From a virus, in the UHGV virus genome UHGV-0072940: 16,360 bases of DNA, one strand, 5' to 3'. Below the pieces are notes generated by a model. It did not search any database. It was given only the letters and a program-made list of their open reading frames with translations, and was not told the DNA's origin. The translations under genes were made by a program, and so were the position numbers. Shown in pieces: positions 7,392-8,363 of this stretch. The first letter of the stretch is position 1, and each line of letters starts with the position of its first letter.

Positions 7392-7862
7392 ATGACAAAA
7401 TCATGGAGCGTACCTTTTCCTGAATCAGAAACTGAACATGATGGAATGCCTGTTTTCTGGAGATTCCAGGCGACAGTTGAAGAAGATGGGATAAAAATAT
7501 TCGCACTTCAATATATAGCTTTTCATCAGACAGAGCATTATGCATGGTTGGTTCCTGCGCATTGGATTGTTAATTTTAAACCAGCACCAAATCAGTGGTT
7601 ACAGGAATGGAAACAAAGGAGAAATAGATATGCAATTAAGAAAGTAGCAAAAAATGCAGAAAGATCTTTTGCATTCCCAACGAAGAAACTTGCTATTGAA
7701 AGTTTATTGCGCCGGAAGAAATACCATTTAATGAGAATAAAACAAGATTTGGCTGTTGTATCAACTCTTGTTGATGGGATGAAAAATATTGATACATCAA
7801 CACCAGATATTGAATATAACTTTGGACACAACCAAGAAACAGAAAATTGGGTATTCTACTAG
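7392..7862 (+). CDS. hypothetical protein (156 aa), first early-left gene after N
   Basis: RBS GAGGTGAG upstream of ATG 7392. AT-rich. No recognisable motif or transmembrane segment. Confidence 0.6.
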   Translation: MTKSWSVPFPESETEHDGMPVFWRFQATVEEDGIKIFALQYIAFHQTEHYAWLVPAHWIVNFKPAPNQWLQEWKQRRNRYAIKKVAKNAERSFAFPTKKLAIESLLRRKKYHLMRIKQDLAVVSTLVDGMKNIDTSTPDIEYNFGHNQETENWVFY

Positions 7863-7887
7863 GCCGCATAGTCGGCCTTTATTTTTG
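7861..7887 (+). terminator. rho-independent terminator (tL1-like)
   Basis: Stem AGGCCG (7861..7866) / CGGCCT (7873..7878), loop CATAGT, followed by TTTATTTTT. Overlaps the stop codon of the preceding ORF. Confidence 0.6.
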
Positions 7888-7908
7888 GCATAAATAACAG
7901 AGGCTAAC

Positions 7909-8205
7909 ATGGAATTTAAAGGTACTGAAGGTAAATGGGAAATAATGATGGATGGCGATGAGATTAAAATCATCCAGGCAGACTCTCTTGAAAATGGCAC
8001 AGGCTGGCGTTCGTATATTGCAATCTGTGAGGAAGTTCAATGCATTGAAGATGCCAATCTAATAGCGGCAGCACCTGACCTTCTCGAAGCACTTCAGTTA
8101 TTACTTAAGCAAACCAAAAATAGAACAACGACAACATATCCAGAATGGTATGGAGCTGTTAATAAAGGTCTCGCAGCAATCAGAAAAGCCATAGGTGATG
8201 AGTAA
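7909..8205 (+). CDS. hypothetical protein (98 aa)
   Basis: RBS AGAGG upstream of ATG 7909. Acidic small protein. No recognisable motif. Confidence 0.55.
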   Translation: MEFKGTEGKWEIMMDGDEIKIIQADSLENGTGWRSYIAICEEVQCIEDANLIAAAPDLLEALQLLLKQTKNRTTTTYPEWYGAVNKGLAAIRKAIGDE

Positions 8206-8363
8206 TGAATAAGAAATACATCGTTGAAGTTATAGAGCGAGAAACGAAAGAAGTAATTAAACATTTCGAATTTGATAATTATAGAAAAGCTGACCGCGTA
8301 GAAGAAGGATTGTTGCGACAAAGTAATCTCGAAAAATTTGATGTTGTCATGCGATGCGAATAA
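8205..8363 (+). CDS. small hypothetical protein (52 aa)
   Basis: ATG overlaps the upstream stop (TAATG). Translation is MNKKYIVEVIERETKEVIKHFEFDNYRKADRVEEGLLRQSNLEKFDVVMRCE. Below the size cut-off of the supplied ORF track; found by reading the sequence. Confidence 0.4.
   Translation: MNKKYIVEVIERETKEVIKHFEFDNYRKADRVEEGLLRQSNLEKFDVVMRCE

Follow-up and report, generated by a model that had tools for sequence, protein, structure and literature searches.

Two exchangeable cassettes of catalogued hypothetical genes between N and ea10 in a lambdoid prophage, and a possible early counter-defence role

What is the role of three small genes that stand where phage lambda has sieB and ral? The genes are open reading frames (ORFs) on the + strand of the UHGV virus genome UHGV-0072940 (16,360 nt; this whole stretch is called the window below), between the antiterminator gene N and ea10 in the early left operon, that is, the operon read from the promoter pL. 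A first-pass annotation had described them as three co-oriented, AT-rich and unrecognised ORFs of 156, 98 and 52 aa, and had proposed them as candidates for novel, early-expressed anti-defence proteins. The three frames lie exactly where it had placed them.

7392-7862, + strand: ORF1, 156 aa, pI 9.1, member of the HK97 gp45 / 933W L0079 family, phrog_1636
7909-8205, + strand: ORF2, 98 aa, pI 4.5, member of PF27050 (Phage_P22_Y8K6; 'XkdD/Y8K6 family' of NCBI), phrog_1273 (E = 3.5e-31)
8205-8363, + strand: ORF3, 52 aa, phrog_6949 (E = 3.2e-40, residues 1-52 aligned with profile positions 1-52)

Judged by their sequence relatives, ORF1-3 are already catalogued hypothetical phage proteins of HK97, 933W, mEp043 and the P22 Orf78 family rather than unrecognised or novel sequences, and their PHROGs families are labelled 'unknown function' only. 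Comparison of related loci indicates that ORF1 on the one hand and ORF2-ORF3 on the other are two independently exchangeable accessory cassettes of the lambdoid pL operon. The finding is thus ordinary lambdoid mosaicism built of known-unknown genes; from the position of these genes, an early counter-defence role would be a reasonable and plausible suggestion.

ORF1-3 are genuine protein genes under strong purifying selection. Each has a Shine-Dalgarno-like sequence (GAGGTGA, AGAGG and GGTGA, respectively), and the ATG of ORF3 overlaps the TAA stop codon of ORF2 (TAATG). Nei-Gojobori counts on the DNA of related loci gave saturated synonymous change (pS 0.7-0.9) against low non-synonymous change (pN 0.07-0.25) across the three ORFs, with pS 0.79-0.87 and pN 0.10-0.24 for ORF1 and pS 0.77-0.86 and pN 0.07-0.16 for ORF3; for ORF2, dN/dS is 0.09 relative to a Salmonella homologue and 0.14 relative to mEp043. 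Frame-disrupting variation among relatives, by which the coding status was to be judged, is absent from the homologues of all three down to 55-63% amino-acid identity; those of ORF1 keep the full-length frame down to 55%, with 40 residues invariant. The AT-richness is confirmed: the GC content of ORF1, ORF2 and ORF3 is 0.36, 0.40 and 0.33, respectively, versus 0.47 in the whole window and about 0.52 in bet/exo, and at third codon positions it is 0.27-0.30, which fits horizontally shuffled accessory cargo.

The match of ORF1 to phrog_1636 covers the full length of both (residues 1-156 to profile positions 1-156, E = 2.7e-112). By tblastn, the protein is 100% identical to those of 933W (L0079), phi24B, BP-4795, Min27 and dozens of other Shiga-toxin (Stx1/Stx2) phages, and 99.4% identical to HK97 gp45 and to an H-19B protein. 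It is present in 598 of 5426 complete E. coli genomes (about 11%), in up to four copies each, and the exact protein occurs on at least 1000 contigs, always labelled 'hypothetical' or 'prophage protein'; few uncharacterised early genes of E. coli lambdoid prophages are as widespread as ORF1. When 1.84 billion cluster representatives were searched with a profile, 87 proteins were found at E <= 1e-3, which comprise the clade of ORF1 itself, some fragments, and a wider group of about 130-155 aa spanning ORF1 positions ~20-140. The 55 aligned family members matched only PHROGs of unknown function and no Pfam family. The family occurs in very different phages, and its best-conserved motif, K-x-x-K...R-(S/F)-F-A-F-x-(T/S)-K-x-x-A...R-K-x-x-(H/Q)-L, lies in the central 47 residues of ORF1 (74-120), which carry a net charge of +13.

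In lambdoid relatives, the ORF1 homologues are found 3-60 nt past N, whatever the type of N. In non-lambdoid phages, the relative is the first gene of a short operon in Salmonella phage NX263 and a related contig, and a Vibrio phage has it near the beginning of a cluster in which a replication-initiator gene is also found. In the NX263-like phages, it is directly followed by a gene for a ParB/KorB-like DNA-binding protein, and a further gene of this operon is labelled as coding for a clamp-like (DNA polymerase III beta) protein. A search for related loci with two distant family members, P0193 and P0169, found nothing.

ORF2 is gp46 of mEp043, and a variant of it is named 'XkdD/Y8K6 family phage-associated protein' in RefSeq. 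The assignment to PF27050 was precomputed on proteins 87-97% identical to ORF2; the scan of ORF2 itself, made with a copy of Pfam lacking PF27050, gave no family. When the ORF2 alignment (A2) was compared with P22 Orf78 by hhalign, a match of 96.6% probability (E = 6.3e-10) was obtained for ORF2 residues 48-98 only; the aligned part is the C-terminal helical half, and the N-terminal halves are unalignable. The family is modular: the N-terminal domain is of one of two types, and after it come a conserved helix (EDAxLIAAAPDLLEALQ), a hypervariable middle and a conserved tail (AAISKALGEE). In other genomes, the gene that comes after an ORF2-family gene is an unrelated small one (70 aa or 42 aa) or a DUF551 gene. 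As virulent Vequintavirinae also have full-length homologues, of 85 aa, the family is not confined to temperate phages. A protein of this length and of the ORF2 architecture is encoded in virulent phages of about 145 kb (some 40 Vequintavirinae and related large genomes), where the gene sits amid nucleotide-metabolism genes; for instance, that of Cronobacter phage EspYZU15 (locus L031, 1504-1761) is about 50% identical to ORF2 in the N-terminal domain and continues with AAPELL. A kinship of ORF2 to the Ead/Ea22 protein of the window, considered because of a shared ANAxxIAxAxP-like motif, was dropped after BLASTP found nothing.

ORF3 is gp45 of mEp043; its homologues form only 12 clusters, which are all from Enterobacterales. 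Prophages of Atlantibacter and Cronobacter have it directly after a different small gene, whose product likewise ends in ALGEA or AIGEEE. Indeed, ORF3 homologues are always found directly 3' of a small gene whose product has the tail A(L/I)GE(E/A), the rest of which may be unrelated; one such partner is a Cys-rich 53-aa protein of Cronobacter (L019, 3339-3662; L021, 3265-3662). The conserved tail overlaps the ribosome-binding site of ORF3; it may mark a recombination joint or signal translational coupling.

The evidence for two cassettes comes from the borders of the interval, which were defined by pairwise blastn against ten related loci.

7330-7394, + strand: left anchor, the junction between the N stop and the ORF1 start, 96-97% identical in mEp043 and Dewey; other genes follow it in mEp043
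7861-7901, + strand: 41-nt linker at the boundary between the two cassettes, with a hairpin stem at 7861-7878 and then TTTATTTTT (T-run)
8365-8396, + strand: stable hairpin directly 5' of the PreS-like RNA, -13.0 kcal/mol in the allele of the window (z = -3.7)
8396-8483, + strand: right anchor, a PreS/LPR1-like Hfq-dependent small RNA, 98% identical to the lambda ral-ea10 intergenic region

The ORF1 cassette extends up to 7870, and the hairpin of the linker begins at the ORF1 stop codon. This is the terminator described at first pass as 'tL1-like'. A hairpin and a T-run are indeed there, the hairpin at 7861-7878 alone being marginal (z = -1.7), but they belong to the linker, 34-41 nt of which recur with 95-97% identity behind lambda ral, the Nmad5 gene of 95NR1, a 107-aa gene in O55:H7 USDA5905 and a 51-aa gene in mEp043. 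In particular, window positions 7868-7901 match the 34 nt that overlap and follow the end of lambda ral (97%). No such hairpin follows L0079 in 933W, and in 95NR1 and USDA5905 the linker terminator lies before ORF1. By these matches, the linker is a portable inter-cassette boundary and no property of ORF1, and it looks like a site where recombination shuffles early-left cargo. A terminator scan of the region gave six terminator-like sites versus 2.7 +/- 1.7 expected, including further sites at 8455-8476, after ORF3, and at 8895-8914, after ea10.

The ORF2-ORF3 cassette (7902-8395) is 97-99% identical in mEp043 and APC_JM3.2 and is found at a coverage of at least 80% in 64 of the 5426 E. coli genomes. 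The full arrangement of ORF1, ORF2 and ORF3 occurs in a single one of these, the source strain itself. In phage Dewey, ORF1 is followed by an ORF2-family gene and then by a different small gene. Alignment with lambda upholds the proposed replacement of the sieB/ral region: the sieB/orf28/ral interval is replaced in the window, and 8396-9000 matches the PreS-ea10-cIII region at 98%.

In the right anchor, the PreS-like RNA has the tL2a terminator stem at 8455-8476 followed by a T-run; the small-RNA part aligns with lambda without gaps, and from the start of the conserved block to the end of the T-run there are exactly 88 nt. The RNA has no Rfam entry and is not annotated in the RefSeq record. 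PreS also precedes Gad1 in E. coli MS 115-1 (L016, 4032-4117) and is present in Dewey, and its 5' portion is found in P22. The hairpin before it is found as two alleles, alike in location and flanking sequence but different at almost every position of the stem; the lambda/933W allele (-18.8 kcal/mol, z = -6.2) is at 3038-3075 of the 933W locus L003 and at about 1213-1255 (- strand) of the lambda locus L008. This hairpin may serve to process or stabilise the small RNA; the comparison covers two alleles and is no statistical covariation test.

The contents of the slot were compared in at least 12 relatives. After N or the N-type gene, the following genes are found.

Lambda: sieB (opposite strand), orf28, ral
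P22: sieB/esc (opposite strand), ral, orf78 (ORF2 family), orf87 (DUF551-like by motifs), gene 17
933W and HK97: ORF1 alone
95NR1: Nmad5 and ORF1
Salmonella prophage L014: Ral, HNH, ORF2 family
Salmonella prophages L011-L013: HNH, ORF2 family
E. coli MS 115-1: 74-aa gene, DUF7446, ORF2 family, 70-aa gene, PreS, Gad1 (PF25705, E = 6.5e-68)

Thus the comparison across related prophages, which had been recommended at first pass, demonstrates cassette swapping. Proven counter-defence genes in the N-to-cIII interval are those of Ral (PF11058, restriction alleviation; lambda, P22 and prophage L014), P22 gp17 (PF17420, growth on Fels-2 lysogens) and Gad1 (PF25705, a Gabija inhibitor; MS 115-1). A 322-aa protein of mEp043 and APC_JM3.2, similar to Sf6 gp33, was also considered as Gad1, but this is unsupported by Pfam, and Gad1 was found only in the MS 115-1 prophage. 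The notion of a hotspot for anti-restriction or exclusion cargo is therefore right in part: Ral, gp17 and Gad1 recur in the interval, but so do DUF551, HNH and Nmad5 genes, which have no link to defence.

The time at which ORF1-3 would be expressed is suggested by the features that surround them.

6672-6700, + strand: pL-like promoter, TTGATA-17-CATTAT, the sole sigma-70-like match of the + strand upstream of N
6950-7333, + strand: antiterminator gene N of the 933W/H-19B/HK97 type (PF25694 N_peptide, E = 2.1e-15; phrog_271)
8503-8871, + strand: ea10 (DUF2528), the right neighbour (PF10800, E = 1.8e-47)

The window is a lambdoid prophage with the gene order cI-like repressor (LexA family/peptidase S24), N, early-left operon, xis and int, and its pL-side genes are all on the + strand; the 2.1 kb tested (6900-9000) match the chromosome of E. 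coli O10:H32 NMBU-W12E19 (NZ_CP042892.1) at 100%. The flanks are as first described, with N on one side and the lambda-like genes ea10, cIII, kil, gam, bet and exo, in this order, on the other. N is 99% identical to the N gene of 933W at the DNA level. The pL-like promoter is taken to drive the operon that holds ORF1-3; it lies after the terminator of the cI operon (6460-6481) and just upstream of the place to which the annotated nutL of 933W maps (about 6718-6784 in the window). A promoter scan found no sigma-70-like site on the + strand between N and ea10. Being co-oriented with pL and having no promoter-like site of that strand inside, ORF1-3 should be expressed early in lytic growth, which agrees with the early expression proposed at first pass. 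The anatomy suggests that the lysogen would not express them and that pL would transcribe them upon infection or induction. In this prophage, the first intrinsic terminator comes only after N and ORF1, so that ORF1 would be made together with N before antitermination, as an immediate-early product; ORF2 and ORF3, beyond that terminator, would need N (delayed-early) and are probably a translationally coupled pair.

Several other observations concern the surroundings. RefSeq (PGAP) marks only the last 69 nt of N (L005, 3366-3434), as a partial pseudogene 'regulator'; the N ORF of the window is intact (127 aa), and the partial call is an annotation gap common in E. coli records. The lambda cIII thermoregulator RNA element (Rfam RF01804, 88.5 bits, E = 1.4e-21) was found at 8931-8989 (+ strand), overlapping the start of cIII. 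Downstream of cI, at 4990-6453 (+ strand), a DUF3024 gene and two hypothetical genes of 162 aa and 206 aa sit beside the terminator-like site at 6460-6481, where 933W has stk and neighbours; they resemble moron-like cargo and are probably expressed in the lysogen. To the right of int, positions 15663-16310 (+ strand) hold what we take to be a host MerR-type regulator gene resembling mlrA/yehV, a known integration site of Stx phages; it starts with TTG, as if truncated by the prophage.

Direct searches for a function of ORF1-3 were negative. Neither the Pfam scan (E up to 1, with the copy mentioned above) nor NCBIfam gave a meaningful match, and PADLOC-DB returned a single spurious one for ORF1 (Cas1_II, E = 0.018) and none for ORF2 and ORF3. 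Sequence and profile searches of the PDB with ORF1, ORF2, the alignments A1 and A2 and the 55-member A4 profile found nothing below E = 0.1. The AF2 models are of low confidence (pLDDT 59.5 for ORF1 and 69.7 for ORF2), so fold searches carry little weight; the Foldseek matches of ORF1 in BFVD were all uncharacterised phage proteins of about its size (best E = 2.8e-3). Comparison with the known counter-defence proteins was negative as well. The ORF1 and ORF2 profiles matched lambda Ral with an hhalign probability of about 0.1%, and PF11058 matched none of ORF1-3; for P22 gp17, the probability with the ORF1 profile was 2.4%, and PF17420, which finds gp17 itself at E = 3.5e-58, misses all three; and the Gad1 model PF25705 does not match them, though it finds the MS 115-1 protein at E = 6.5e-68. 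The hallmarks of SieB-type genes (own promoter and orientation against pL) are absent from ORF1-3, and those of type II toxin-antitoxin systems (fixed pair, own promoter and domains) from ORF2-ORF3. A literature search on L0079, HK97 gp45, the protein accessions, the phrog identifiers, PF27050, XkdD, Y8K6 and orf78 found nothing relevant. The remote-homology and structure searches recommended at first pass thus gave no link of ORF1-3 to anti-restriction or exclusion.

With a probability of roughly 0.4, we propose that ORF1-3 neutralise, by binding, host or resident-prophage functions that would block infection. The proposal is based on where the genes lie and on their being accessory and horizontally mobile, in parallel with Ral, P22 gp17 and Gad1. 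Since lambda lacks all three ORFs, and 933W and HK97 lack ORF2-ORF3, these genes are dispensable for lambdoid growth, and their patchy spread among the E. coli genomes (ORF1 in 598, the ORF2-ORF3 cassette in 64, the full set in one) also favours accessory cargo. ORF1 would act via its strongly basic central helix region, and ORF2 and ORF3 as a small acidic protein pair.

Several points weigh against this proposal. The proteins are not novel, and no sequence, profile, domain or fold connects them with known anti-restriction, anti-defence or exclusion proteins. A 2025 DefenseFinder run on the ORF1-bearing phages phi296, phi315 and phi345 flagged only methyltransferases, Ral and Gam as anti-defence (PMC12502783). 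As the interval also holds DUF551, HNH, Nmad5 and other genes without a demonstrated defence role, position is weak evidence. The +13 core of ORF1 would fit a nucleic-acid-binding regulator and an inhibitor equally well. The occurrence of the ORF2 family in virulent Vequintavirinae and its NCBI name, taken from XkdD of Bacillus PBSX, point to a general rather than defence-specific role. Finally, the immediate-early status of ORF1 depends on the configuration, because the linker terminator precedes ORF1 in 95NR1 and USDA5905.

A more detailed version of the counter-defence proposal, which joins the two cassettes, is unlikely to hold as a whole. ORF1 would be an immediate-early effector that disarms host- or prophage-encoded immunity or takes over a host nucleic-acid process, with a fold for which no relative has been solved; ORF2-ORF3, as a second inhibitor made of two proteins, would follow different targets through its hypervariable N-terminal and middle modules; and both would be new counter-defence families of the main Shiga-toxin phages.

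The alternative that survives best, possible though rather doubtful, is that ORF1, and perhaps ORF2-ORF3, serves the phage's own early programme as a nucleic-acid-binding factor that modulates transcription or antitermination, replication or recombination. It would account for the charge of the ORF1 core and its motif shared by very different phages, for the tight linkage of ORF1 to N in lambdoids, and for the ParB/KorB-like and clamp-like genes in the NX263-like operon; moreover, the 100% identity of ORF1 across dozens of Stx phage genomes is unusual for arms-race genes. However, lambda, P22 and many other lambdoids do without ORF1, hence the function cannot be a core one, and the other characterised occupants of the slot act on host functions.

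It is improbable that ORF1-3 are expressed from the prophage and protect the lysogen by superinfection exclusion or abortive infection, like sieB or rex. Though sieB occupies this interval in lambda and P22, and the AT-rich composition of ORF1-3 is moron-like, sieB has a promoter of its own and lies on the other strand, whereas ORF1-3 follow pL and the promoter scan left no candidate on the + strand between N and ea10. Besides, no PADLOC defence model matches them, and, unlike in SieB, no membrane segments are evident by reading the sequences (no prediction was run). A self-contained toxin-antitoxin or addiction-type pair formed by ORF2 and ORF3 is suggested by their overlap and by their joint occurrence in the window, mEp043 and APC_JM3.2, but it is very improbable: partners swap freely, as ORF2-family and ORF3 genes each adjoin unrelated genes elsewhere, the pair has no promoter of its own, and neither a toxin-antitoxin nor a PADLOC family matches it. 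That ORF1-3 are chance reading frames in an AT-rich spacer, as the several antisense ORFs of similar size might suggest, is refuted by saturated synonymous sites with little non-synonymous change and by frames intact to 55% identity, together with ribosome-binding sites and many independent homologues.

If it is true that ORF1 or ORF2-ORF3 counteracts host immunity, this would affect which strains are open to lysogeny by Shiga-toxin phages. The map of the slot from N to PreS, with its anchors, linker and cassettes, could help to find the early accessory cargo of thousands of prophages. As for HK97 gp45, the sole gene annotated from N to cIII in that phage, it is a very widespread and easily testable early gene, and the value of the finding is that of a pointer.

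Among known systems, Ral, P22 gp17 and Gad1 resemble ORF1-3 in their location in the N-to-cIII interval of the pL operon, in being small non-essential early proteins and in cassette exchange. They differ in having no sequence or profile similarity to ORF1-3, so that a functional likeness would follow from position only. The SieB genes of lambda and P22 occupy the same interval beside N, but on the opposite strand and from their own promoter (annotated in P22), whereas ORF1-3 are oriented with pL and lack a promoter-like site; by its annotation, SieB keeps other phages out by superinfection exclusion, a function that agrees with expression in the lysogen.

The right border has its counterpart in lambda LPR1/PreS, an Hfq-dependent RNA of about 88 nt that lies between ea10 and ral, ends at tL2a, raises host dnaN and helps phage replication, as described in a 2024 preprint (bioRxiv 10.1101/2024.10.31.621285). 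The RNA at 8396-8483, just beyond the interval first described, has the same length (88 nt), terminator and position before ea10, and its upstream hairpin is a different allele. P22 Orf78, like ORF2, is encoded in the pL operon, downstream of the gene for an N-type antiterminator (gene 24 in P22), and the small gene that comes next overlaps with it; both proteins have the helix AAPxLLEAL and the C-terminal tail ARAAIxKALGxE, whereas the N-terminal domain and the middle segment are unrelated, and the downstream partner is a DUF551 protein in P22 and ORF3 in the window. Finally, HK97 gp45 and 933W L0079 occupy the same position as ORF1, directly after N; L0079 runs straight into the hairpin and PreS, whereas in the window the terminator-bearing linker and the ORF2-ORF3 cassette come after ORF1.

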